From assembly GCF_036365525.1 (NCBI RefSeq), contig NC_090375.1:34281282-34345281 (forward strand): DNA of 64,000 bases. Direction: 5' to 3'. A program made the position numbers and the translations under genes. This stretch comes from Heterodontus francisci (Eukaryota). Each line of letters begins with the position of its first letter. The first letter of the stretch is position 1. Below the pieces are notes generated by a model. It ran no database searches, was not told the DNA's origin, and was given only the letters and a program-made list of their open reading frames with translations. This document shows positions 1 to 52,790 of this stretch, in pieces.

Positions 1-117
1 GCCGCCGGCCCCAGGTCAAGGTACAGCGGTCACTTGCAGAACCTATCAAAGGAGTGAAGATCAATCCCAGGATTGGGCTAAGGAACCAGGTGAGGCTGTA
101 GTATTGTTCTGGAAGAC
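1..117 (-). CDS. SLC45A4: SLC45A4 second coding exon (partial, continues past window start)
   Basis: Reverse complement reads ttgttcttacAG|GT CTT CCA GAA CAA TAC..., translating (G)[38 protein letters not shown], the SLC45/sucrose-transporter-like 'SDRC..WGRRRP' region; phase-1 acceptor (AG 119-118) matches the phase-1 donor at 13311. Not in the supplied ORF track. Confidence 0.95.
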
Positions 118-10572: not shown

Positions 10573-12370
10573 CACCGGTTACCACTGCCACAGCACTTGA
10601 CCTTCCATAATTAATGTCTTATAATTGCTGGCTATGGCAAAAGTTGACTTTAATAGCTGCATTCAATGATGTAGCAGCATATTAACTCACTTTTACTGAA
10701 AATTGAACAAATGCAGCCATGATCAAATGATCAAGACAATGGGATGAACGATTTCATACTAGCAATATAAAAATGGACATGGATAGTAGCATTTTAGTAT
10801 TGAAAGACAATGTTACATCACAGCAGCTGAACAGTCAGTACATTATGAGGCAATACCACCTGCATTAATTCATTTAACCCTATTTCACTCAAGTTACCAG
10901 AATAGAAGAGGAAAAAAAGGTTTTCCCAGCATTGTTCACCCCAATTTATTGTTGAAACGTGATAGGTCAGGGCAACCCTATTTCCATGAACATGTCAGCA
11001 CAGTCACACTGAATACTACTAGGAACTAGATCCTCCACTTTTCCCAGGACAAAGCTGAAGAAATCCAGGAGGGTGGTCTTATGTATTTTTCAGATCTCAG
11101 CCGAGAATCAATGATTTAAGACTATATCTTGTAGGTTGATGTACACCCAAAACAATCAGATGAGGAAGTTCTGGAGAAACTTATTTACTTTAGCATGCGA
11201 TGTTTTGAAATATTTTATTTGAACCAGCTCAATAGACAAAGTTGTAAATAAGTAAATTGATTATAGATTATTTGATAGTGACAGTGGGAGAAAACAAAGT
11301 ATTCCAGTTTTGTTTTTAGAAAGTGAAAATTATACATAAACATTTTTGAAATACCAATTTACCAAATGTTGACAAAAATCAGGAGTGGTCCAAGAGCCAA
11401 AAGATCATTTTTTAAAATTCATTTCATGAGATGTGAGCATCACTGGCAAGGCTAGCATTTGTTGCTCATCCCTAATTGTGATGAGGGGCTGCAAGTGTTT
11501 TTATTTAAAACAACTGTTGAGTTTGTAATACACTTGTCAGCACAATTACAGACCTTACTCTGCAATTCTCATGCAGCATAGAGACAGATTCAGTCAAATG
11601 TCTGGGCCCTACTCTTCTGTGGGCTAAAAATTATATAGCAACTAACTTAGGGGGAAAAAAAAAGTGTGCGCAGGAAAGAATATCAAAGAAAGCAAAAAGT
11701 ATCAGACTAAATTAAGTGGAAGCAATTTAGTTGGATTCATATTTGTTGCAAGTGAATTCACCCTTGCATTTTTCCCACACAGAAAATTTAAAGATTTTCT
11801 AATGTTCATCCTGTTTTCGCAAAAAATTCCAGGAAAATATTAGTACAATTTTAGCCAGAGATCCTTAAAGATACCCACAGACCCATACGATAATGGATAT
11901 CTGAATTACAGGGTAGGAACATAGTCTTGTATTAAGATATTCATTACTGGTTAACTACAAGGTCAGAGCTCATTTTACTATCAATTCCAGATCCAAGATG
12001 CTGCAAAAATGCAGTATTACTGGACTATTTGTTAAGGGAATTTCTCTACTGTATTCATAAGATCCTCTTTAGCAAAGTCACAAAGGCAGCAATTGAGATT
12101 ATGCTATTTGACGAAGCAAACCCAGCTGCTACTCCATTTATTTAAATTACATTTGAAAGATTGTTGGTACTAAAAATACAAGTACTCCCAATAGTGCCAA
12201 TTCTTCTGAGGGCACTCACTATAAACATTAAGCTTCTGTTACATTTAAATTATACTTCTCAATTACCTAGCAATTTACTGTGTTACAATATTATGGAATA
12301 AAGATAGTCAACAAAATCTTACTACACATATTAAATTTAGCAATTATTTATTTATTTATTTTTTAAAAAA

Positions 12371-12688
12371 AGAGATACAGCACTGAAACAGGCCCTTCAG
12401 CCCGAGTCTGTGCCGACCAACCACCCATTTATACTAATCCTACATTAATCCCACGTTCCTACCACACCCCCATCTTCCCTTAATTCCCCTACCTATACTA
12501 GGGGCAATTTACAATGGCCAATTTACCCATCAACCTGCAAGTCTTTGGCTGTGGGAGGAAACCGGAGCACCCGGTGAAAACCCATGCGGTCACAGGGAGA
12601 ACTTGCAAACTCCACACAGGCAGTACCCAGAATTGAACCCGGGTCACTGGAGCTGTGAGGCTGCGGTGCTAACCACTGCGCCACTGTG
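12371..12688 (-). mobile_element. HE1-like tRNA-derived V-SINE
   Basis: A box tggcgcagtgg, B box ggttcaattc, body gtgtggagtttgcaagttctccc, CR1-derived tail gaagggcctgtttcagtgctgtatctct. Confidence 0.9.
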
Positions 12689-13310
12689 ATGATCAGCACC
12701 AATATATAATTGATATCAAGTCAGCAAACACTATACAGAAGATATTGGAAGTAAACAAGCCAATAAACAGTTTCTTTGCTTAATGAATTCAGCAGGTGTT
12801 TGTAGAAATGGGAAATGTTGAAAAATTTGGGTATTCATTAGGAACTATATAAATTGAAATGTATTTTTTTCATAAATATATATGGAAGGAGATGGGATGT
12901 ATAGTTGTGGTCTTTCGAATAGCGGTATTAGGCTGGCTCAAACCTTCAGTTGCTACCCTTAACCCTGGAGGCATAAGTTACATGAAATCTGTAGACAAGA
13001 TAGAGCAACACAAAAATATCACCTGCAAGTTCTTGGAAATTTTGATATGTTTTCTTATTTAAAATGTAAAATTAGTTTCTGAAGAGATATGCATATTTCC
13101 GATAGTCAGGCTGCAGATTTTACTGCATTAAATCAATTGTTCTATTAAATAAAAAGGTAAAAAAAAAAGTGTATGTAGATAGTCAATGCATATTTAAATA
13201 ACTGAGGACACACCAGCTTAGTCCCTGTATTTTGGTCCATATACCTGATCTGAATTATAGAAAGACATTTGCAGAGATATTTTAGTGTTACTTAGGTTCT
13301 TAGCACTCAC

Positions 13311-13545
13311 CTATCTGCAACAATACTGGTGTTACCAAGGCAGTTTCCATAGCATAACAGAATTCCCTGCCAAACATCACTGCACCATGCATCACCCATA
13401 ATTTGACAGGAATGCGATCGATTGACCCCTCACTAACTGTTTCATCACCATTCTCCTTGTTGTCTCTTTTCTTTTTCAATTTTGTGGGTAATTCTTGTGC
13501 TTGCATAGATTCTGTGTCATCATTTTGTGGAGCCATTGTTGCCAT
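13311..13545 (-). CDS. SLC45A4: SLC45A4 first coding exon, coding part
   Basis: [20 protein letters not shown]...[41 protein letters not shown] matches the vertebrate SLC45A4 N-terminus as I recall it; donor ATA G|gtgagt at 13311/13310; 235 nt = 78 codons + 1. Second in-frame ATG at 13536. Confidence 0.95.
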
Positions 13546-13859
13546 AAAAAATATATTTGCACTTTTTTTGGGAAAAAGCTTAATCAAGATATTTTTCCTC
13601 TGGTTTTCTGTTCCAGTTGTAGGCTGGTACTTTTCTTCCACAATTTCCTCTAAATGTATTCAAAAAAAACATACACCAAAAGAAAGCTATTTGGTAGAAA
13701 CTTTGGATTATGGCTTGTTTATTGTCTATTAAAAATCCATATTAATTGCCATTCAGTTAATACTAGTTTCATTATAGAAGAGGTGTTTTCTTTGCAGTAT
13801 AGAGATAGGATGGCAACACAAGAAGGTGGTCCTCTGTTACTCCCCATCGAGCGATTGTT
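13546..13859 (-). other. SLC45A4: 5' UTR part of the SLC45A4 first coding exon, with several uORFs
   Basis: Strong acceptor ctttttttcttcccattttgtgtttcAG (AG 13861-13860); non-repetitive; uATGs at 13847, 13772, 13752, 13740, 13672. Confidence 0.75.
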
Positions 13860-14195
13860 CTGAAACACAAAATGGGAAGAAAAAAAGTGAAACTCATAGG
13901 CTGAATGGCCTCTTTCAGTACTAGTGTGTCTATGCTACAAGATCTGCATTTTTAAAAAAAATGAGGAACTAGAAACAGAGCACTGATCCTAAAAGCAAGT
14001 TGTAATGTTTTCCATAAGATGGTAATTATAACCAACTGTAATAAGGACAGAGCTCTCAAAATTTGACCTTGGTCATTGATAAGAGCACAGTAAGGCATCA
14101 AGAAACTTTCCTGTGCTCCCATGAGCAAATCAGATTTTCATTGTCAAAAGTGTGCTCCAGTAACCTGTGCCAGTGTTTATTCTACATTTGTACTG

Positions 14196-14660
14196 TGTTA
14201 CGACCGAGGTGGGAGCAATGTCAATTCAGTTCCATCACTCCACAGGTCGCAGAATATTAAAGTTTTCCCACCCAACCAAATTAAACCCTCTGGTAACCCC
14301 CAAAATAAAACAGACCAAACCAGGCAGCTTCAAACAACAAATTAACTATTTATTAAAACTAAATCTTAAACACCATCAAGATAAACCTAAGTCTAAAGAC
14401 CTTACAAGTTTTAACTTAACTCCCTCATTCACACACAAACACCCAAACATCACGGTTAACCAGTTTCTTTTTTTTTTTAAGTTTTAAAAATTAGCTGTTT
14501 GAGAATAAATAAATAACTGGCATAAAAGTCTTTGTGGGTTACATTCCTGATGGGTGAGGTCCTAGCAGAAAAAGAAATAATCAAATGCCACTCGAAGTCT
14601 CCAGGCAGATTTAATGAAATAGTCCTTCAAAAATAAGCATTCAAACATTCCAGTAGAGCT
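14196..14660. mobile_element. LTR-like fragment
   Basis: Begins tgttacgaccgaggtgggag, resembling the reverse complement of the solo-LTR end at 58645 (tgttatgaccgggtgaggaag); other end unclear. Confidence 0.4.
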
Positions 14661-14794
14661 CCAGTAGTAGTTTGCAAAGCTTCATTGTAGATAGTCAATA
14701 TGATCTTCATTAGGAGTCGCATAGGTTGTCTACATGCTACCCTTGTGCAACATCTGAAAAACACATCAGGTTCCAAATATATGCTGATGGCATT

Positions 14795-15985
14795 AGTCAT
14801 AGAGTATAGAAACAGGCCCTTCGGCCCACTGCACCATACCGACCATAATGCCTATATACTAATCCCACCTGCCTCTATGCCTTGCTCATTAAAGTACCTG
14901 TCCAGATGCCTCTTAAATGTCACTACTGTTTCTGCCTCCACCACCTCCTCAGGCAGCTCATTCCAGATACCCACTATTTGTGTGACACATTTACCCCTTT
15001 GATCCCCATTAAACCTCCTCCCGCTCATCTTAAATCTATAACCTCTAATTTTAGTCAGCCTACCATGGGAAACAGACTCTGGTTATCTACCCTATCTATG
15101 CCTCTCAATTTTATATACCTCTATCATGTCCCCTCTCAGCCTCCTTCGCTCCTGGGAAAACAGACCCAGCCTATCCCTAATATAGGTAGGTGGTAGGGAA
15201 ACAGACAGGTGGGGATATGGTAGGAATATGGGATTAGTATAAATGTGTAGTTAATGGTCGGCACAGACTCAGTGGGCCGAAGGGCCTGTTTCAGTGCTGT
15301 ATCTCTAAACTAAACTAACACTATCCAATCTCTTTATAACTCAAGCCCTCCAAACCAGGAAACATCCTTGTGAATCTTTTCTGCACCCTCTCTAGCTCAA
15401 TCACATCTTTCCTGGAGTGCGGCGACCAGAACTGCACACAGTACTCCAAGTGTGGCCTAACCAATGTTATGTACAACTGTAACATGACGTCCCAACTCTT
15501 GTACTCAATGCCTCAGCTGATGAAGGCAAGCATGCCATATGCCTTCTTCACCACCCTGTCTACCTGTGTTGCCACTTTCAGGGAACTATGTACTTGCACC
15601 CCAAGGTGTCTCTGCTCAACAACACTCCCCAGAGCCCTGCCATTCACTGTATATGTCCTGTCCTGGTTTAACTTCCCAAAATACATCACTTCGCACTTGT
15701 CTGCGTTAATTCCATTTGCCACTCCCTTGCCCACTTTCCCAGTTTATCTATATCCTGTTATAACCTCAGACAACCTTCACTGTCCACTATACCACAATTT
15801 TGGTGTCATCTGCAAACTTACTAATCATGCCCCTTACATTCACATCCAAGTCATTATTATATATGACAAACAATAGAGGGCCCAGCACCGATCCCTGCGG
15901 CATACCACTGGTCACCGGCATCCAATCTGAAAAACAACCCTCCACTACCACCCTCTGCCTCCCATCACCAAGCCAATTTTGTATC
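14795..15985 (-). mobile_element. CR1 (HER1-like) 3' fragment with nested SINE
   Basis: KCEVMYFGKLNQDRTYTVNG..LGVQVHSSLKVATQVDRVVKKAYGML; tail gggccgaagggcctgtttctatactctatgact. Confidence 0.9.
15181..15318 (+). mobile_element. HE1-like SINE, 3' part only
   Basis: taggtaggtggtaggg..ggcacagactcagtgggccgaagggcctgtttcagtgctgtatctctaaactaaac. Confidence 0.85.
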
Positions 15986-15999
15986 CTGCTCCCTCACCA

Positions 16000-16420
16000 C
16001 CTCTCGACTCTTCCATGGTCTCTGATCTGTCAAACTGTTTGTCCAACATCCAGCATTGGATGAGTGATAAAGTTCCTTCAACTAAATACTGCAAAGGCTG
16101 AAGCCACTGTCTTTCATCTCTGCCACAAGCTCCATTCCCAGCCCCATCTCTGGCAACTGTCTAAAGCCAAGTCAGGCCATACGCAACCTTAGTGTTGTCA
16201 TGTCTGTCCCAGAAAATAGCATCCGCTCACATAGCTGCTCCAGCACCAAAATTGCCTACTTACACCTCTATTACATTGTCCAACTCAGACCCCATCTCTG
16301 CTCATCTGCTTAAAACTAGTTTGTGTCCGTTACCTCTAGTATTACTACACCAATACTCTCCAGGCCAACCTTCCATCTTATATAAACTAGTGCTCATCCA
16401 AAACTCTGCTAACCATATCT
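16000..16420 (+). mobile_element. L2 fragment
   Basis: CLSNIQHWMSDKFLQLNTAKAEATVF, typical L2 RT C-terminal motif. Confidence 0.6.
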
Positions 16421-16424
16421 CAGA

Positions 16425-18199
16425 ACCAAGCTCTGCAGTCCTGCCACATCCAGTCGTGAATGGTGGACAGCAGGAGGTGGCTCCACAAATATCCCTACCT
16501 ACCCTCAACGATAGGGAACCCTGCACATCAGTATAAAATCAAGGCTGAAGCACTTGCATCCAACTTCAACCAGAAGTGCTGAGTGGATGACCCATCTCGG
16601 CCTCTGCCTGAGGTCCCCAGCATCACGGATGCCATTCTTCAGCCAATCTGATTCACTCCACGTGATATATATAAAAAGCTGAATACACTGGATACTGCAA
16701 AGGCTATGGGCCGGAACAACATTCGGCAATAGTACTGAAGACCTGTGCTCCAGAACTAGCCGTGTCCCTAGCCAAGCTGTTCCAGTACAGCTATAACACT
16801 GGCATCAACCTGGCAATGTGGAAAATTGCCCAAGTATGTCCTGTACACAAAGCAGGACAAGTCCAACCTGCCAATTACCGCCCTTTCAGTCTACTCTCGA
16901 CCAGCAAAGCGATGGAAGGGGTCATTGACAGTGCTATCAACTGACACTTGCTCAGGAATAACATGCTCAATGACGCTCCGTTTGGGTTCTGCCAGGGCCA
17001 CTCAGCTCCTGACCTCTTACAGCCTTGGTCCAAACATTAGAGTTAGAGTCATATCTAGTGCAAAAGGAAGATAAAAGCAAAATACTGCAGATGCTAGAAA
17101 TCTGAAATAAGAACAAGAAACGCTGGAAATACACAGGTCTGGCAGCATCTGTGGAGAGAGAAGCAGAGTTAATGTTTCAGGTCAGTGACCCTGCATCAAA
17201 AGGAAGATGGTTGTTGGAGGTCAATCTCCCCAGCCCCAGGTCATCACTGCAGGAGTTCCTCAGAATAGCGTCAGAGGCCCAACCATCTTCAGCTGCTTCA
17301 TCCTTCACTTCATCATAAAAGGTCAGAAGTGGAGTTGTTCGCTGATGGCTGCACAATGTTTAGCACCCTTCCCAACTCCTCAGATACTGAAACAGCCAGT
17401 ATCCAAATGCAGCAAGACCTGGACAATATCCAGACTTGGGCTGATAAGCAGCATGTAACATTCGCGTCACACAAGTTTCGGGCGATGACAATCTCCCCAT
17501 CTCCCCTTGATGTTCAATGGCATTACCAACGCTGAATCCCCCACTAGCAACATTCTGGGGGTTACCATTGATCAGAAGCTGAACTGGACCAGCCACATAA
17601 ATGATATAGCTACAAGAGCAGGTCACAGGCTTAGAATTCTGCAGCAAGTAACTCATCTCATATCCCCCCAATGCCTGTCCACCATCTACAAGGCACAAGT
17701 CAGGAGTATGATGGAATACTCTCCACTTGCCTGAATGAGTGCAGCTCCAACATTAAAGAAGCTCGACACCATTCAGGACAAAGAAGCCCACCTGACTGGC
17801 ACCCCATCTACCCCAGACACAGTGGCAGCAGTGTGTACCAGCCACAAGATGCACTGCAGCAACTCACCAAGGCTCCTTCGACAGCACCTTCCAAACCCGC
17901 GACCTCTACCACCTAGAAGGACAAGGGCAACAGATGCACGGGAACACGACCACCTGAAATTTCCCCTCCAAGCCACACACCATCCTGACTTGGAACTATA
18001 TTCCCGTTCCTTCACTAACGTCACAGGGTCAAAATCCTGGAATTCCCTTCCCAACAGCACTGTGGGTGTACCAATACTCCAGGGTTTGCAATGGTTCAAG
18101 AAGGCAGCTCACCACCACCTTTAAGGATAATTCAGGATGGGCAATAAATGCTGGCCTACCCAGCAACACCCACAATGGGTGAATGAATAAAAAAAAAAA
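16425..18199 (+). mobile_element. LINE family B copy with nested Penelope mini-insertion
   Basis: Same RT and 3' end as 1795-3137; frameshifted. Confidence 0.9.
17073..17196 (-). mobile_element. 124-bp Penelope pLTR mini-insertion, 12-bp TSD
   Basis: Flanked by caaaaggaagat at 17061-17072 and 17197-17208; ends inside the hammerhead core. Confidence 0.8.
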
Positions 18200-18419
18200 G
18201 CCTCAAGATTCTTCCTAAAGTGTGGTTTCTTATACTGCATAATGCTCAGTTTAACTAGTCACTATAAAGTTTTATACAGCCTTATCATTACCTCTTGCCT
18301 TTATATCAAAAAATCTAAAATTCTAATTTAAGAAATAACAGCTAATCAATATTTATTGTCATGAACTTGCACATCTATAATCCCCTCTTCTTTCACAGCA
18401 CCAATCCTACCTCCAAAAG

Positions 18420-19241
18420 TAAAGCCCTGGTCGGGTCTGCAAATAAAAAAAAACCCAACCCGAGCCCAACCCGACAGAGACAGAACAGTACAGCACAATA
18501 ACAGGCCATTCGGCCCTCCAAGCCTGCACCGATCTTGATGCCGGTCTAAACTAAAACCTTCTGCACTTCTGGGGACCGTATCCCTCTATTCCCATCCTAT
18601 TCATGTATTTGTCAAGATGCCTCTTAAACGTCACTATCGCACCTGCTTCCACCACCTCCCCCGGCAGCAAGTTCCAGGCACTCACCACCCTCTGTGTAAA
18701 GAACTTGCCTCGCACATCCCCTCTAAACTTTGCCCCTCTCACCTTAAACCTATGTCCCCTAGTAACTGACTCTTCCACCCTGGGAAAAAGCTTCTGACTT
18801 TCCACTCTGTCCATGCCGCTCATAACTTTGTAAACCTCTATCATGTCGCCCCTCCACCTCCGTCGTTCCAGTGAAAACAATCCGAGTTTATCCAACCTCT
18901 CCTCATAGCTAATGCCCTCCAGACCAGGCAACATCCTGGTAAACCTCTTCTGTACCCTCTCCAAAGCCTCCACATCCTTCTGGTAGTGTGGCGACCAGTC
19001 CTTCCATTTCTTCCCGCGCCCGACCATCAGTTAACTTACCTTCCGTTTTTCACTTTGTTGCTGATCTGCACAAGCGTAAAATAACAAAACTACCTTTCTA
19101 GTTCGAAAATTAAATCAACAGTAAAGCCACTTACCTGTGATAGGGCGTGTCCGGCTCGCCCCTACCCCGAATGCTGGACCTGGAAGTGCAACCCGACGAC
19201 CCCAACACGTTGTCGGGTTCTGGTCGGGTAGTACGCCTTTA
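18420..19241. mobile_element. hAT-like MITE (cccgac/gtcggg-rich) interrupted by a CR1
   Basis: Ends taaagccctg / tacgccttta; subterminal acccgac and gtcgggt motifs; degenerate 8-bp TSD tccaaaag / ttccaaag. Confidence 0.55.
18478..18997 (-). mobile_element. Young CR1 3' fragment
   Basis: Open frame WSPHYQKDVEALERVQKRFTRMLPG..FFTQRVVSAWNLLP..; tail ggccgaatggcctgttattgtgctgtactgttct. Confidence 0.92.
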
Positions 19242-19613
19242 TTCCAAAGTACAATTACTGCAAGTTTTTAAAAAAAAAAACTGCTCACCTAGTGACTTAG
19301 AATTCTGACACTCGTTAGCTCATTTCCCCATCTCAATATTCCCCTGCCCATGCTACTTCTTTTACCATCTTAAGTGCATCAGCTGAGGGACTGCCTCAAG
19401 TAAAATTTTATGCAGGCCATATCAGCGAGGAGCAGCTCCAGTCCCAGGTGAGCAGGGAGGAGCCTTGTTCCACGTAATGGTGGTGGGATTCCACAAGAAC
19501 GGCCATGAGGTGAATGGCAAGTCAGGTTGAGGGTTGGCGGGGGGGGGGGGGGGGGTGGCGATGGCAGGGTGTAAAAGGCTTGTGTGCACCTGAGCGCTGC
19601 AAGATCAGAGAGA

Positions 19614-19940
19614 GGCACAGTGGCGCAGTGGTTAGCACCGCAGCCTCACCACTCCAGGGACCCGGGTTCAATTCTGGGTACTGCCTGTGTGGAGTTTGCA
19701 AGTTCTCCCTGTGACCGCGTGGGTTTTCGCCAGGTGCTCCGGTTTCCTCCCACCACCAAAGACTTGCAGGAGATAGGTAAATTGGCCATTGTAAATTTCC
19801 CCTAGTGTAGGCAGGTGGTAGGGAATATGGGATTACTGTAGGTGTAGTATAAATGGGTGGTTCTTGGTCAGCACAGACCCGGTGGGCCGAAGGGCCTGTT
19901 TCAGTGCTGTATCTCTAAATAAATAAAAATAAATAAATAA
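19614..19940 (+). mobile_element. HE1-like SINE
   Basis: Full head-body-tail, taaa-repeat end. Confidence 0.92.
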
Positions 19941-23920: not shown

Positions 23921-24270
23921 GCACAGTGGTGCAGTGGTTAGCACCGCAGCCTCACAGCTCCAGGGACCCGGGTTCGATTCCGGGTACTGCCTGTGTGGAG
24001 TTTGCAAGTTCTCCCTGTGTCTGCGTGGGTTTTCTCCGGGTGCTCCGGTTTCCTCCCACAAGCCAAAAGACTTGCAGGTTGATAGGTAAATTGGCCATTA
24101 TAAATTGTCACTAGTATAGGTAGGTGGTAGGGAAATATAGGGACAGGTGGGGATGTTTGGTAGGAATATGGGATTAGTGTGGGATTAGTATAAATGGGTG
24201 GTTGATGTTCGGCACAGACTCGGTGGGCCGAAGGGCCTGTTTCAGTGCTGTATCTCTAATCTAATCTAAA
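23921..24270 (+). mobile_element. HE1-like SINE
   Basis: A/B boxes, body, CR1 tail, ctaat repeats. Confidence 0.92.
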
Positions 24271-24877: not shown

Positions 24878-25229
24878 GATTAGATTAGATTAGAGATACA
24901 GCACTGAAACAGGCCCTTCGGCCCACCGAGTCTGTGCCGACCATCAACCACCCATTTATACTAATCCTACACTAATCCCGTATTCCTACCAACATCCCCA
25001 CCTGTCCCTGTATTTTCCTACCACCTACCTATACTAGGGGCAATTTATAATGGCCAATTTACCTACCAACCTGCAAGTCTTTTGGCTTGTGGGAGGAAAC
25101 CGGAGCACCCGGAGAAAAGCCACGCAGACACAGGGAGAACTTGCAAACTCCACACAGGCAGTACCCAGAATCGAACCCGGGTCCCTGGAGCGGTGAGGCT
25201 GCGGTGCTAACCACTGCGCCACTGTGCCG
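24878..25229 (-). mobile_element. HE1-like SINE
   Basis: Near-identical reverse complement of 23921-24270. Confidence 0.92.
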
Positions 25230-26183: not shown

Positions 26184-26498
26184 CACAGTGGCGGAGTGGT
26201 TAGCACTGCAGCCTCACAGCTCCAGGGACCCAGGTTCGATTCTGGGTACTGCCTGTGCGGAGTTTGCAAGTTCTCCCTGTGACCGTGTGGGTTTTCGCCA
26301 GGTGCTCCGGTTTCCTCCCGGAGGAGGAAGACTTGCAGGTGATAGATAAATTGGCTGTTGTAAATTGCCCCTAGTGTAGGTAGGTGGTAGGGAATATGGG
26401 ATTACTGTAGGGTTAGTACAAATGGGTGGTTGTTGGTAGGCACAGACTTGGTGGGCCGAAGGGCTTGTTTCAGTGCTGTATCTCTAAAATAAAATAAA
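26184..26498 (+). mobile_element. HE1-like SINE
   Basis: cacagtggcggagtggttagcac..ggttcgattc..gtgctgtatctctaaaat. Confidence 0.9.
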
Positions 26499-33365: not shown

Positions 33366-35050
33366 GCCCATCCCTAACTGCTCCAAGGTGGTACTGAGTC
33401 TTCTTTCTGTTGCTATTCTTAGGTTGATAGTGGTTCAAAAGTGATATAAAGCAAACTGTTATGTTCTGGATGATATCAAGCTTCTGTAGTTTTGTTGTGG
33501 CTGCACCCATCCAAGTGAATGATGAATATTCCATCACTTTCTTGATTTGAGCCTTCCTGTGGTGATGGGTCAGGAAGAGATGCAATTGTAATAGATTGTT
33601 ATTAAGCTTCTAGTAAGAATGACACTCAAGATGCAGTGATGCAGGATGTGATGTTGGTACTGTTGCAGGTTGGGGGGAGTGGACACAAAATAGGTGGTCA
33701 CATTTTCCAACACATCACTTATCAGCCCAAGCCTGGATATCATCTCCATCCTTCTACAGGCTGCCAATGGCTGCTTTATGAGTTGCAAGAGGAGCTGACA
33801 CTGAAATGAACAAAACAGCCCTGATCCTAACTTCATGGAGGAAAAGTCATTGAAGATGGTTGGGTCAAGGATACTTCCCTCGCGTGGTGCAATAGTTGGC
33901 ACAGTATTCAGTTTCCATTTGCAACACCTCATCTGATGAAGCAAGATATGAACAACATTCAGACAGGAGTTTATTTATTTATTTAGAGATACAGCACTGA
34001 AACAGGCCCTTCGGCCCACCAACAACCACCCATTTATACTAATCCTACACTAATGCCATATTCCTACCACATCCCCACCTGTCCCTATATTTCCTACCAC
34101 CTACCTATACTAGGGACAATTTATAATGGCCAATTTACCTACCAACCTGCAAGTGTTTTGGCTTGTGGGAGGAAACCGGAGCACCCGGAAGAAACCTACG
34201 CAGACACAGGGAGAACTTGCAAACTCCACACAGGCAGTACCCAGAATTGAACCCAGGTCGCTGGAGCTGTGAGGCTGTGGTACTAACCACTGCGCCGCCC
34301 CAATTGATAAGTAACATTCGCACCATGCAAGTGTCAGGCAATGACCATCTCGCACAAGTGTCTAACCATCTTCCCTTCACATTCAATGGCATTACCATCA
34401 CTAAATTTTCTTCCCACCTAATTAATACTCTTCAGGGGTCACCCCACTGGCCATAAACTTAAATGGAACAATCAAGTATGGTAGCTAGAAAAGCAGGCCA
34501 GAGGTTGGGAATTCTTCAGCAAGTAACTCACCACCTAACTTCCCAAAGCCTTACCCACCATCTACAAGGCACAATTCAGTTCGCCTCCATGAGTGCAGCT
34601 CCAGTAGCACTCTAAGCTCAATGCTATAGGACAAAGCAACCCATTTGATTGGTACCCCATCCAACACCTTAACCATTCATTCCTTCCACCACAGGCATAC
34701 CATGGCTGCAGTGTGTACCATCTACAAGATGTAATGCAGCAACTTACCAAGGCTTCTTTGGCAACACATCTCAAACCCACAACCTTTACCACTTAGAAGG
34801 ACGAGGACAACAGGCACATGGGAATAGCACCACCTGCAAATTCCAAAGTCTCATTCCATCCTGACTTGGACCCACAATCAGCATTCATTCATTACTAGGT
34901 CAAAATCTTGGAACTTCCCAACAGCACTGTGGGTGCACATTCACCACAAGGATTGCAACAGTTCAAGTCAGCAGCTCACTATCTTCAAGGGCAATTAGGA
35001 TGATCAATAAAATACTGTCCTTTCCACGACGCCCACGGGATAATAAAAAG
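33365..35050. mobile_element. Decayed family-B LINE fragments (minus ~33365-33900, plus ~33930-35050)
   Basis: KAQIKKVMEYSSFTWMGAA..; plus-strand gtgtgtaccatctacaagatg and gggcaattagga..caataaaa end. Confidence 0.7.
33971..34300 (-). mobile_element. HE1-like SINE
   Basis: Same consensus; ttta-repeat tail. Confidence 0.9.
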
Positions 35051-38874: not shown

Positions 38875-41410
38875 TGCATAACACAAGAAATGGGAGGAGT
38901 AGGCCATTCAGCCCCTCAAGCCTGCCCCACCATTCAATAAGATCATGGCTGATCTGTCCCAGGCCTCAACTCCTCTTTCGGGCCTGCTCTGCATAACCTT
39001 CGACTCAGATTTCAAACATCTATCTACCTCTTCCTTAAATACATTTAGTGATCCAGCCTCCACAACTCTGAGGTAGAGAATTCCAGAGATTCAGAAGAAA
39101 TTCCTTCGCATCTCAGTTTTAAATGTGTGACCCCTTATTCTGTAACTACGTCCCCTAGTTCGAGATGCTCCCACCAGTAGAAACATATTCTCAACGTCTG
39201 CCCTGTCAAGCCCCCTTAGAATCTGGTATTTCTAGAAGATCACCTCTCATTCTCCTAAACTCCAATGAGTAAAGGCCTAACCGGTTTAGCTGTTCCTGAT
39301 AAGTCAACCCCTTCATCCCAGGAATCAGTCTAGTGAACCTTTTCTGAACTGCCTCCAATGCTAGTACATCCTTGGTTAAATACAGGGACCAAAACTGTAC
39401 ATGGTACTCCAGGTGTGACCTCACCAACACCCTGTACAGTTGTAACAAGACTTCCCTATTTTTTTTTTTATAAACTAACCTCCTAGCAACAAAGGTCAAA
39501 ATTCCATTAGCCTTCCTAATTACTTGTTGCACCTGCATGCTACCTTTCTGTGTAGCATGTACAAGAACACCCAGATCCCTCTGTACTGCAGTATTTCTCC
39601 ATCTAAATAATCTGCCTTTTTATTCTTCCTACCAAAGTGCATGACCTCACACTTTCCCACATTGAACACCATCTGCCAAGTTTTTGCCCACTTACTCAAC
39701 CTAATTATATCCCTTTGCAGATTCCTTCTGTCCTCCCACCTATTTTTGTCTCATCAGCAAATTTGGATATATTACACTCTGCCCCCTACAAGTCATTAAT
39801 ATCGATAGTAAATAATTGAGGCCCCAGGACTAATACTTGTGGCACTCCACTAGTTACATCTTTCCAACCTGAAAAAGACTCATTAATCCCGACACTCTGT
39901 CTGAGAGTTAACCAATCCTCAATCCATGCTAATACATTACTCCCAATACAGTGAGCTCCTATCTTGTGCAATAATCTTATGCGACACCTTATCGAATGCC
40001 TTCTAGAAATCCAAATATACTACATCTACCGGCTCCCCTTTAATCAACTGCACTGGTTATACCCCCAAAGAACTCTAGCAAATTTGCCAAATATAATTTC
40101 CCATTCACAAAACCATGTTGACTGTTTGATTGCGTTAAGCTTTTCTAAATGTCCTATTTCTTCCTTAATAACGGACTCTAGCATTTTCCCAACGACCGAT
40201 GTTAGGCTGACTGGCCTATAGTTTCCTGCTTTTTGTCTTCCTCCCTTCTTGAACAGGGGTGTCACATTAGCAGTTTTCCAATCTGCTGGGACCCTCCTGG
40301 AATCCAGCAAATTCTAGAATATTTTGACCAATACCTCCACTATCTCTGCAGCCACTTCCTTTAAAACCCTTGGATATAGGCAGATTTATACTTTGTCCTA
40401 CAGTGAGGCAACTCTTCGGGAGCCTATAGACCACTCCCACCTGTGACTTCTTCCCCCTGCTATTCCTTATTTCCACCCAAACTGATTCCACATCATGATC
40501 AATTGCACCAATATCACGACTCACCACCACACTGATACTTTTCTTTATTCAAAGAGCATCCCCACCTCCTTTTCCTTTTTGCCTATTTTTCTAGAACGTC
40601 AAATACCCTTCAACATTGAGCTCCCTATTCTTGGTCACCCTGCAACCATGTCTAATAGCTATCAAGTCATATTCATTTATTTCTATTTGTGCCGTCAACT
40701 CATCTATCTTGTTACAAATGCTGCATGCATTCAGATAAAGAGCCTTAAGCTTTCACTTTTTACCGTTACTACTCATTCTGGTTCTAACTTCTGCTGCACT
40801 CCTCTGCCTATATTTTCTGCCCCTTCCTGTCACACTTTGACCACCATTCGCCTCTTCACTACCCTGCACCTCTGCTCTCTCATTTCTTTGAGTTTTTAAA
40901 CTTCAATTGAACCCTTCTTCCCCACCCCCCCTTCCACACTAATTAGTTTAAAGTCCTATCTACAATCCTAGTTATACGATTCGCCAGGACACTGTTCCCA
41001 ACATGGTTCAAATGATGCCCGTCCCAATGGGACAGCTGTCTCCTTCCCCAGTACTGGTGCCAGTTCCCCATGAATAGGAACCCATTTCTCCCACACCAAT
41101 CTTTGAGCCATGCCTTTACCTCTCCAATCTTATTTACCCTATGCCAATTTGCACGCGGCTCAGGTAGTAATCTAAAGATCAACATCTTTGTGGTTCTGCT
41201 TTTTAAATTTAGCCCCGAGCTGCTCATAGTCCCTCAGCAGAACCTCTTTCCTCGTCCTACCTATGTTGTTGGTACTTATGTGGACCATGACAACTGGATC
41301 CTTCCCCTCCCACTCCAAGTTCCCCTCCAGCCCAGAAGCGATATCCTTAACCTTCGCACCAGGTAGGCAACACAGCCTTCGGGACTCCGTGGCTTTGCTG
41401 TAGAGAACAG
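38875..41410 (-). mobile_element. CR1 with ORF1 esterase half, endonuclease start, ~0.95 kb internal deletion, RT and tail
   Basis: LCCLPGAKVKDI..VHISTNNIG, WDGHHLNH; VESVWVEIRN..VGVVYR; NYRPVSLTSVVGK. Same subfamily as 48820-52790. Confidence 0.9.
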
Positions 41411-41534
41411 TATCATGACATCCCAAAAGTGCTTTACAGCCATTGAAGTATAGTCACTTTTGTAATGTAGGAAACACAACAGCCAATATGCACACAGCAA
41501 GCACCTACAAAACAGCAATATGATAGTTTTCTCT

Positions 41535-48819: not shown

Positions 48820-51800
48820 GTAGAATAGAGATGGCTGGGCAGGCGATGTGTTGCAGCTGTAGTATGTGGGAGCTGGTGGACGCCAGTGCACACCACTGTG
48901 GCCACATCTGCAGGAACTGTTGGCTGCTCAAGGACCTTCGGCTCAGAGTTGATGAGCTGGAGTCCGAGCTGCAGACACTGCGACATATCAGGGAGGGGAA
49001 GTGTTACCTGGTCACTTTCAAGAGACAGTCACACCTCTTAGATTAATTACATCAAATTTGGACCATGGTCAGGGACAGGAGGGTGTGATTGCGAGTGAGA
49101 CAGGTATGGGGATCCAGCATTTAGCTTTGCAGGAGCCTCAGCCAATGCCCTTATCCAATAGGTACAAGGTTCTTGCTCCTGGTGTGGACTAGGACACAGA
49201 CTGCAGGGAGGATGAGTGAACTGACCACAGCACCGTGGTTCAGATTGGCATTCAAGTGGGGGGAGAAAAGAGAAATGTAGTACTAATAGGGGATAGCATA
49301 GTTAGGGGAATAGATAGAGTTCTCTGGCGCAAAGCCAGGGAGTTCCGAAGGCTCTGTTGCCTACCTAGTGCCAAGGTTAAGGACATCTCTACTGGGCTGG
49401 AGGAACTTGGGAGTAGGAGGGGAAGGATCCAGTCGTCGTGGTCCACATAGGTACCAATGACATAGATAGGGCTAGGAAAGAGGTTCTGCTGAGGGACTAT
49501 GAACAGCGCGGGGCTAAAATTAAAACGCAGAACCTCAAAAGGTAATAATCTCCAGATTACTACCTGAGCCATGTGCAAATTGGCATCCAGTAAATAAAAT
49601 TAGAGAGGTAAACGCGTGGCTCAATGATTGGTGTGGGAGAAATGGGTTCTGATTCATGGGGTACTGGGACCAGTACTGGGGAAGGAGATAGCTGTCCCGT
49701 TGGGACAGGCTTCATTTGAACCATGCAGGGAACAGTGTCCTGTCAAATTGTGTAACTAGGGTTGTAGATAGGACTAAACTAATTAGTGTGATGGGGGGGG
49801 GAAAAAGAAAAGAGAGGTTTCAATTGAAGGGAAGTTTAAAAAAAAAAAATCAAAAACAAAATGAGAGAAAGTGCAGAGATGCAGGGTAGTGAAGAGGCGA
49901 AAGGTAATCAAAAATGTGACAAGAAGGGGCAGAAAATAGCAAAAGAATGAGTAATAATGGTAAAAAGTCAAAGCTTAAGGCTCTTTAATTGAATGCATGC
50001 AGCATTTGTAACAAGATAGATGAGTTGACGGCACAAATAGAAATAAATGAACATGACTTGATAGCTATTACACAGTCATGGTTGTAGGGTGACCAAGACT
50101 GGGAACTCAATATTCAAGGGTATTCGACATTCCGGGAAAATAGGGAAAAAGGAAGAGGTAGGGGAGCTTTAATAAAAGGAAGGTATCAGTGTAGCGGTGA
50201 GTAGTGATATAGGTGCAATAGATCATGATGTGGAATCAGTTTGGGTGGAAATAAGGAATAGCAAGGGGAAGAAGTCACGGGTGGGAGTGGTCTATAGGCT
50301 CCCGAAGAGTTGCCTCACTGTAGGACAAAGTATAAAATCGGGAAATAATGGAGGCGTGTATGAAGGGCGCTACAATTGTCATGGGTGGTTTTTAATCTGC
50401 ATATTGACTGGATAAATCAATCAGATTGGCAGAGGTAACATGGAAGACAAATTTGTAGAGTGCATCAGGGATTGTTACTTCGAGCAATACGTTGCAGAAC
50501 CTACCCGGGAACAAGCTATTTTAGATCTAGTAATGTGTAATGAGGTAGGATTAATAAGAGATCTCATAGTTAAGAATCCTCTAGGGAGCTAGGGATCTCA
50601 ACATGGTAGAATTTCAAATTCAGTTTGAGGGCGAGAAACTTGGGTCTCAAACCAGTGTTCTTAACTTAAACAAGGGCAATTACAGAGGTATGAAGAAAGA
50701 ATTGTCTAAAGCGGGCTGGGAAAATAGACTAAAGGGAAAGTCAGTAGATGAGCAGTGGCAGACTTTTAAGCAGATATTTCACAACACTCAGCAAAAATTT
50801 ATCCTGGTCAAAAAGAAGGACTCGATGAGAAGGATGAACCACCCTTGATTAACAAAGGTGGTCAAGGAGAGTATCCAATCAAAAACTAAGGCATATAAAG
50901 TGGCAAAAACTAGCGGCGGGGCAGAGGATTGGGAAATTATGAACGAGCAGCAGATGACTAAAAAGCTAATAAAAAAGGAGAAAATTGATAAAGTAAATTG
51001 GCAAGAAATATAAAAGCAAACAGCAAGAGCTTCTATGGGTATATAAGAGTGGCTAAAGTGAGCATGGGACCCTTGGAGGATGCGACTGGAGGATTGATAA
51101 CAGGGAAATGGCAGATAACTTAAACCAATATTTTGCATCGGTCTTCACAGTGGAGGACACTATAAAACATCCCACAGATATCAGATAAGCAAGGAACTTA
51201 CGGGAGGAAAGATCTTGCAACAGTCTCTATCATGAGGGACAAAGTATTTGACAAACTAATGGGAAGGTAGACAAGTCGCCAGGATATGATGGCCTGCATC
51301 CAAGGGTTTTAAACAGGAAGTTGCTGCAGAGATAGGAGAGGCATTGGTCAAAATATTTCAGAACTCATTGGATTCCAGGAGGGTTCCAACGGAATGGAAA
51401 ACTGCTAATATGACACCCCTGTTCAAGAAGGGAGCCTCACATCGGTCATTGGGAAAATGCTCGAGTCCATTATTAAGGAAGAAATGGCAGGATATTTAGA
51501 AAAGCTTAATGCAATCAAACGGAGTCACATGGTTTTGTGGAAGGGAAATCACATTTGACAAATTTGCTAGAGTTCTTTGAGGATATAACAAGCAGAGTTG
51601 ATAAAGGGGAACCGGTAGATGTCGTGTATTTGGATTTCCAGAAGGCATTCGATAAGGTTTCACATAAAAGATTATTGCACAAGATAGGAGCTCACAATAT
51701 TGGGGTAACACATTAGCATGGATTGAGGATTGGTTAACTCACAGAAGACAGTCAGGATTAATGGGTCTTTTTCAGGTTGGGAAGACGTAACTAGTGGAGT

Positions 51801-52790
51801 GCCACAAGCATTAGTCCTAGGGCCTCAATTATTTACTATCTTTATTAATGACTTGGAGGAGGGGGCGAGTGCAATATATCCAAATTTGCTGACAATACAA
51901 AAATAGGAGAGAGGACAGGTGATGAGGACATATGGAATCTGCAAGGGGATATCGATAGGTTGAGTGAGTGGCAGATGGAGTTTAATGTAGGAAAGTGTGA
52001 GGTCATGTACTTTGGTAGGAAGAATCAAAAGGCAGATTATTTAAATGGAGAGACTCCAAAAAAGTGCAGCACAGAGGGATCTGGGTGTTCTTGTGCATGA
52101 AACACAAGTTAGCATGTAGGTGCAGCAAGTAATTAAGGTGGCAAATGGAATTTTGGCCTTTATTGCTGGGGGGAGTGGGGGGGGGGGGGGGGGGAAATTG
52201 GAGTTTAAAAATCGGGAAATCTTGTTACAACTGTACAGGATGTTGGCAAGGCCGCACCTTGAGTACTGTGTACAGGTTTAGTCCCTGTATTTAAGAAAGG
52301 ATATACCGGCATTGGAGGCAGTTCAAAAGAGATTTACTAGGCTGATTTCTGGGATGAAGAGGTTAACTTATCAAGAATGGCTAAACAGGTTAGGCCTTTA
52401 TTCATTAGAGTTTAGAAGAATGAGGGGTGATCTTATTGAAGATTCTGAGGGGGTAGATGTTAAGATGTTTCCACTAGTGGGGGAAATCATGAACTAGGGG
52501 ACATAGTTACAGAATAAGGGATGCTCATTTAAAACTGAGCTGCGAAGGAATTTCTTCTCAGAGGGTAGTGAATGTCGGAATTCTCTACCCTAGAAAGTTG
52601 TGGAGGCTAGATCAAGTATTTAAAGAGGAGGTAGATAGATTTTTGAAATAATCGGGGAGTTGAGGGCTACGAGGAGCTGGCAGGAAATAGGAGTTGAAGT
52701 CTGGGGCAGATCAGCCATGACCTTATTGAATGGCTGGGCAGGCTTGAGGGGCCGAATGGCCTATGCCTGCTCCTATTTCTTATGTTCTTA
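48820..52790 (+). mobile_element. Near full-length decayed CR1 (ORF1 Zn-finger/coiled coil/SGNH esterase; ORF2 APE + RT)
   Basis: CCSCSMWE..HICRNC..LRLRVDELESEL; IGDSIVRG; NACSICNK; RT motifs; tail ggccgaatggcct..cctatttcttatgttctta. Confidence 0.92.

Follow-up and report, generated by a model that had tools for sequence, protein, structure and literature searches.

A conserved upstream open reading frame in the first coding exon of SLC45A4 of Heterodontus francisci and the SINE copies around it

The first coding exon of SLC45A4

We analysed a stretch of 64,000 nucleotides from the shark Heterodontus francisci (NC_090375.1, positions 34,281,282 to 34,345,281; hereafter the window), which carries on its minus strand the first coding exon of SLC45A4 and, within that exon, a conserved upstream open reading frame (uORF). 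The exon (13859-13311) is 549 nt long, with a pyrimidine tract and AG upstream and a consensus GT donor downstream. From ATG 13545 onward it codes for SLC45A4 residues 1-78, with 97% identity to the top match, P0001, which itself matches MFS in Pfam; the named proteins among the matches were SLC45A4 from rays, a sawshark, and tetrapods. The gene features needed below are as follows:

1..117, minus strand: following SLC45A4 coding exon, truncated at the edge of the window
12700..13310, minus strand: proximal downstream intron, covered by exon-continuous contigs; in X6, splice to a cryptic acceptor near 12996 (evidence: contigs)
13311..13859, minus strand: first coding exon of SLC45A4, 549 nt; supported orthologue of the exon circularised in mammals (splice signals, protein matches, contigs)
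13311..13545, minus strand: main reading frame start of SLC45A4, ATG 13545, with ATG 13536 in strong context; 173 nt past the uORF stop
13719..13847, minus strand: conserved uORF, 42 codons and stop; ATG 13847 in weak context, 12 nt past the acceptor (peptide matches)

Contigs from 4 of 22 runs (library types unrecorded, none on record as RNA) were compared with 12700-14190; X10 gave no alignment, and three runs covered the exon: X1, which is the window's own organism, X6, a relative, and X12. Contigs of X1 and X6 depart from the genome at 13861-13862, where they are joined to three different upstream sequences; the acceptor at 13859 is therefore in use. None of the three sequences was found in the 64-kb window at up to 3 mismatches. 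Two of them belong to the very organism of the window, which puts the probable length of the upstream intron above 50 kb; with the next coding exon beginning at 117, the downstream intron measures 13.2 kb. An earlier reading of the DNA from its letters alone (the sequence-only reading) had described a single exon of this length with a strong acceptor and donor and long introns on both sides, a description that the splice signals, the contigs, and the intron lengths bear out. Two of the sequences joined to the acceptor (X1) are GC-rich and one (X6) is AT-rich, pointing to alternative first or 5' untranslated region (UTR) exons outside the window. The X1 exon contig runs unbroken over 13309-13861. 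A single X12 contig (13309-14187) passes from the exon into the upstream intron, unspliced at 13859, and may represent pre-mRNA, DNA, or another start. Contigs of X1 and X6 leave the upstream intron uncovered, to which we attach no weight.

The upstream reading frame and its conservation

The uORF has a second in-frame ATG at 13772, which stands in a better context than the first and opens the most conserved block; the main ATG lies 173-182 nt beyond the uORF stop. A search of 1.84 billion representative proteins with the uORF peptide returned three matches. One of them, P0309, an unnamed vertebrate protein from Logan, matched with an E-value of 7e-4 and 72% identity. The ten residues from the second Met onward are identical between the shark peptide and P0309, and the insertions and deletions that separate the two comprise whole codons. 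The other two matches were repetitive proteins without a plausible link and were rejected. Furthermore, five frog SLC45A4 models (P0056, P0278, P0286, P0298, and P0299) start with the first 33 residues of the uORF fused to the transporter, apparently through a splice inside the exon, and it is these models that tie the peptide to SLC45A4. A candidate internal acceptor is also present in the shark (13649), and the shark models P0245 and P0257 splice within the exon, with P0257 including the start of the uORF peptide.

Over 13859-13719 the uORF frame holds one stop (its own), compared to five and four in the other frames. Among the substitutions listed for the uORF in related sharks, two of four are synonymous, one leads to Phe as in frogs, and one leads to Phe where frogs carry a hydrophobic residue. 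A mammalian stretch agrees with this frame at 24 of 28 codons and forces no stop (mean of 8.7 in shuffles; 0 of 20,000 reached this fit). Judged from these comparisons, the peptide of a closed 42-codon AUG frame is common to other vertebrates, and the uORF appears to be shared with frogs and probably with mammals. The element, newly described here, had been missed by the sequence-only reading and offers a coding reason for the deep conservation of the exon.

Pfam (applied to the uORF), Rfam, ARAGORN, and the protein atlas gave no usable match. An SLC45A4 uORF was not found in the literature we covered, which included the readable supplements of PMC4568590 and PMC8892498 and the main text of PMC7530721; literature searches for it returned only method papers on other subjects. 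The element may already be catalogued: 1,517 conserved animal uORFs are tabulated with PMC7530721, and that table may hold it.

SINE copies around the exon and circSLC45A4

Seven copies of one short interspersed element (SINE) lie between 12.3 and 34.3 kb, three in gene-sense and four in antisense orientation, together with a remnant of the tail that the element shares with a long interspersed element (LINE):

12348..12688, minus strand: HE1-like tRNA-derived SINE (the 12371 copy), gene-sense, ~620 nt downstream of the donor, with a LINE-like tail
13891..13923, plus strand: antisense remnant of the SINE/LINE 3' tail, ~33 nt, just upstream of the pyrimidine tract and beside the branch-point region
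15175..15318, plus strand: SINE 3' half, antisense, nested within a LINE fragment that spans about 14795-15998
19614..19940, plus strand: full antisense SINE copy, 92% identical to the 12371 copy without gaps
23921..24269, plus strand: antisense SINE copy, which pairs best with the 24880 copy at a distance of 600 nt (96%)
24880..25227, minus strand: competing gene-sense SINE copy within the upstream intron
26184..26498, plus strand: antisense SINE copy
33974..34296, minus strand: competing gene-sense SINE copy within the upstream intron

The copies share 85-97% identity. They carry A and B boxes of the tRNA type (SINE positions 6 and 50), and the terminal ~100 nt align with the 3' ends of four LINEs within the window, belonging to what we take to be a CR1/HER1-type family. 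With its tRNA boxes, its LINE-shared tail, a length of ~320-350 nt, and a shark host, the element fits the description of HE1 and is alike to it in each of these respects, the name being given provisionally on its anatomy. HE1 belongs to the V-SINE superfamily and has HER1 as its partner LINE (PMC4824008, PMC3747384). By their sequence, the flanking SINEs are young copies; no flank duplication was detected at the 12371 SINE. In the relative X6, a different repeat begins at 12733, 45 nt from the 12371 site, and an 8-nt insertion lies at 12988, at the cryptic acceptor; the repeat content of the intron thus differs between close relatives. The sequence-only reading had placed its SINE copies correctly throughout, except that the 15175 copy is merely a 3' half within a LINE. 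Its list omitted the two gene-sense copies of the upstream intron (24880-25227 and 33974-34296), which can compete for the antisense copies, and overlooked the tail remnant at 13923-13891. Two further inverted arrangements were observed in the upstream intron. The 23921-24269 and 24880-25227 copies, 96% identical and 600 nt apart, are predicted to pair over 338 bp (-692 kcal/mol) as a strong intronic hairpin and are a likely substrate for A-to-I editing. At 38880-41414 and 49313-52786 lies a large inverted pair of fragments resembling LINEs, about 1.5 and 1.0 kb in size and 79-84% alike.

The sequence-only reading had proposed that the pre-mRNA can pair across the exon. Predicted duplexes agree with this, as the 12371 copy would pair with upstream antisense copies over 120, 297, 316, or 285 bp, with the 15175 fragment accounting for 120 bp (-196 kcal/mol) and the 19614 copy for 297 bp (-567 kcal/mol), and with -579 kcal/mol for the 316-bp duplex. 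The 24880 gene-sense copy is predicted to pair equally well or better with every partner of the 12371 copy, including 19614 (-584 kcal/mol at a distance of 4.9 kb, slightly better and closer than 12371/19614). Closer to the exon, the remnant would form a 29-bp helix with the SINE tail (12378-12408) that ends 32 nt from the acceptor in a 1.65-kb fold (28.7 expected pairs); in a 3-kb fold, it is displaced by the 15175 fragment. Within the proximal upstream intron, no stretch was predicted to pair better with the 12371 SINE than the remnant (best 56-nt window, -55; mean -33, sd 7, 176 windows).

We compared this bracket with control positions, taken in unique sequence of the one window in 50-nt steps and thus non-independent. 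With the locus removed, a strong inverted pair as tight as 12371/19614 (6.9 kb) was present at 32 of 425 positions, and a strong pair within 11.2 kb at 157 of 425. With the locus included, the counts were 66 and 33 of 460, and some bracketing pair occurred at 457-458 of 460 positions. Random placement of 6-7 copies gave a bracket in 7-10% of cases at the window density and in 43% at the local density. The SINE bracket is genuine and rather tight, yet not clearly beyond chance; many exons of such a genome would have one.

The same exon is known for a circular RNA (circRNA) in mammals, circSLC45A4, of which Suenkel et al. (2020) reportedly gave the primary description. The sequence-only reading had named this circle as reportedly abundant in the brain of mammals and frog. 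Reviews confirm it for human and mouse, with its mechanism called unknown (PMC11260338, PMC12694936, PMC10503630, PMC12634670); for frog, the parts of the literature covered by our search lent no support. The human circle is 641 nt long (PMC7731483, a retracted paper used here for coordinates only). Among the short proteins, one with a mammal-type SLC45A4 N-terminus (P0149) continues past the exon end into a tail that corresponds to neither the next exon nor the intron. The tail can be aligned with what the first bases of the shark exon encode (12 of 23 residues identical, E-value 3e-8; 0 of 20,000 shuffles). The contig behind P0149 is 782 nt long, i.e., 641 + 141, and 141 is presumably an overlap length of the assembler. 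A junction form of the circSLC45A4 exon therefore exists in a mammal. Furthermore, the donor lies in the same codon position across vertebrates, and the shark acceptor is homologous to that of the mammalian circle within 4 nt. The view that the shark exon is the counterpart of the mammalian circularised exon, with both boundaries homologous, is therefore supported, and a shark circle is plausible because both boundaries match. Human and mouse circSLC45A4 and the shark locus have in common the gene, the single first coding exon, and the donor phase; the shark differs in exon length (549 nt, compared to 641 nt for the human circle), in flanks made up of HE1-like SINEs, and in being known from exon homology, not from circularisation. 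The exon length is divisible by three, and in a circle the main reading frame would cross the junction and meet a stop seven codons on.

No back-splice joint was found in the exon-covering contigs of X1, X6, and X12, which reach 13309 and thus go beyond 13311, the point at which a path through the junction would split off. As contigs drop rare forms, and as a contig from the exon to the next exon is likewise missing from these runs, the lack of a joint does not show its absence. Of 252 short proteins, 120 were examined: 111 continue with Gly, which is the intron read-through type, so that these homologues also read into the downstream intron, 3 stop where the exon does, and 6 have some other continuation. 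P0149 was the only one among them to match the exon start, and none was shark-like. A protein search with the P0149 tail recovered P0149 itself and nothing else, and the junction tail was not found among the listed cluster members (up to 15 per cluster) of shark, ray, and frog proteins. Sharks do make circRNAs, with 4,558 circles in the full bamboo-shark list (PMC7759564). A 545-nt bamboo-shark circle (22-545) was considered as a product of this exon and rejected, since three of its primers do not match; it belongs to another locus.

Possible translational control and back-splicing, and the alternatives

Putrescine is transported by SLC45A4 (PMC12634670). Among polyamine genes, control by conserved uORFs is frequent; those of AZIN1 and of the yeast importer HOL1 respond to polyamines (PMC11550727). 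With moderate confidence, we read the locus as one in which the conserved uORF likely brakes the translation of SLC45A4 and the SINEs are young and probably incidental. Scanning ribosomes would start at 13847 in its weak context or at 13772 in its better one and make the peptide; ribosomes slowed on it would let fewer arrive at the main ATG. We consider it probable that translation of the uORF takes place and reduces initiation at the main ATG. If it works as in AZIN1 and yeast HOL1, high polyamine levels would tighten the brake; a response of this uORF to polyamines is offered as a tentative suggestion. Being short, second in the transcript, and placed with conserved splice sites between very long introns, the exon would likely circularise to some extent in shark neural tissue, and we lean towards a circle being made in the shark. 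The 12371 SINE could pair with three nested upstream partners, which would turn over between lineages, and the SINEs would add at most to back-splicing.

The uORFs of AZIN1 (PPW motif), HOL1 (PS-stop), and SLC45A4 are all conserved, have a start in weak context, and belong to a gene of the polyamine pathway (PMC11550727, PMC7530721). The SLC45A4 uORF differs in having two in-frame AUGs, a hydrophobic, Trp-rich conserved block, and neither motif. As PPW and PS-stop are missing, we liken it to AZIN1 and HOL1 without classing it with them. HOL1, like SLC45A4, is a polyamine transporter of the major facilitator kind. In a bolder version, to which we give little credence, a polyamine-sensing arrest peptide (HOL1-like, with a new Trp-rich motif) would have resided in the SLC45A4 leader since before the split of sharks and tetrapods, and a circle trapping the uORF and the main start would act as a second brake, tuned by HE1 SINEs in sharks; conservation of the circle would then largely reflect the peptide.

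Several observations weigh against the uORF as a translational brake, or against the SINEs as incidental. The fit of the mammalian tail reflects nucleotide conservation and is not independent proof of selection on the peptide. A closed AUG frame of at least 42 codons arose in 168 of 2000 shuffles of the UTR, and the matches to the uORF include a single full-length homologue. PPW and PS-stop end neither the shark peptide nor that of P0309, and the Pro-Pro of the shark peptide is not conserved. A hairpin is predicted at exon positions 12-56, in the first half of the uORF (z-score of -1.2); the two non-synonymous changes leave it intact, so that some of the conservation may be due to RNA structure. 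Judging from the frog models, part of the uORF may also serve as an N-terminal extension. Regarding the SINEs, a short pair as tight as 12371/15175 (2.8 kb) was present at 1 of 425 control positions with the locus removed. Within the window, the downstream intron lacks any competing antisense copy and antisense copies outnumber gene-sense copies in the upstream intron, both of which favour a real role of the SINEs.

Some of these points lead to a different explanation of the conserved 5' block, namely that it is kept as a hairpin or splicing signal by the acceptor, possibly for back-splicing, while an internal splice fuses its first 33 codons to the transporter. The predicted hairpin, the five in-frame frog fusions, and the shark models P0245 and P0257, which splice inside the exon, speak for it. 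The folding z-scores of -1.2 and +0.24 are, however, not significant, the X1 contig shows the exon unbroken, and the best-conserved block sits past the frog splice point, where it is removed, yet is nearly identical between shark and P0309. We regard this explanation as unlikely. In another alternative, the 12371 SINE acts on the linear transcript, its gene-sense tail supplying poly(A) signals. Part of the transcripts would then end ~1 kb into the intron, yielding a short exon 1-exon 2-intron RNA with an 81-residue stub. Three overlapping AATAAA motifs are present in the SINE tail (12360-12347), exon-continuous contigs of X1 cover 12700-13338 and head for the SINE head, those of X6 cover 12733-13338 and show the donor spliced to ~12996, those of X12 extend over some of the region, and the read-through peptide has 81 residues. 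However, contigs show neither RNA ends nor levels, and the cover may stem from nascent RNA, DNA, or internal oligo-dT priming. As X6 carries a different repeat at 12733, read-through is independent of the 12371 SINE, and we consider SINE-borne polyadenylation very improbable.

A further alternative keeps closest to the sequence-only reading, in which inverted SINEs may hold a possibly ancestral circle in place: the shark would make abundant circSLC45A4, driven by pairing of the 12371 SINE with the upstream antisense copies or with the tail remnant on the branch-point side. The predicted duplexes of up to 316 bp and -579 kcal/mol and the remnant helix 32 nt from the acceptor would allow for it, the bracket is tighter than at 393 of 425 control positions, and upstream gene-sense copies can, as we infer, absorb 26184 and 23921 in the order of transcription, freeing 19614 and 15175. 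The exon boundaries are those of the mammalian circle, and sharks are known to produce circRNAs (PMC7759564). Against this, strong pairs within 11.2 kb also bracket 157 of 425 control positions, 24880 is a slightly better and closer partner for 19614, and the remnant helix gives way to the 15175 fragment in the longer fold. The SINEs cannot carry an ancestral circle because the copies are young. We regard an abundant, SINE-driven circle as rather doubtful.

What stands of the sequence-only interpretation is the identity of the gene, the boundaries of the exon, and its potential for pairing; the idea of lineage-specific SINEs supporting orthologous circles is not new, having been published for mammals. 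Gruhl et al. (2021) described young, species-specific repeats around orthologous circles in five mammals and read them as convergence or by-product, not as ancestry (PMC8516420); the available supplement text of that paper (26,479 characters) did not yield SLC45A4. Their cases and the shark locus are alike in having young lineage-specific SINEs in long introns around an exon that is circularised elsewhere, and the present locus differs in being from a shark. As repeat-flanked circles have been read as convergent, a shark circle alone would not show an origin before the split of sharks and bony vertebrates. If true, it would extend the range of circSLC45A4 beyond tetrapods and, with young SINEs, would fit convergence as well as ancestry. 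If the 5' block is a coding uORF, its conservation ceases to be an argument that the circle has a function, and knock-downs aimed at the junction would need to be re-read. As SLC45A4 has newly been assigned as a polyamine transporter, the conserved uORF would furthermore allow a direct and cheap test of yeast-like translational feedback on vertebrate polyamine transport.

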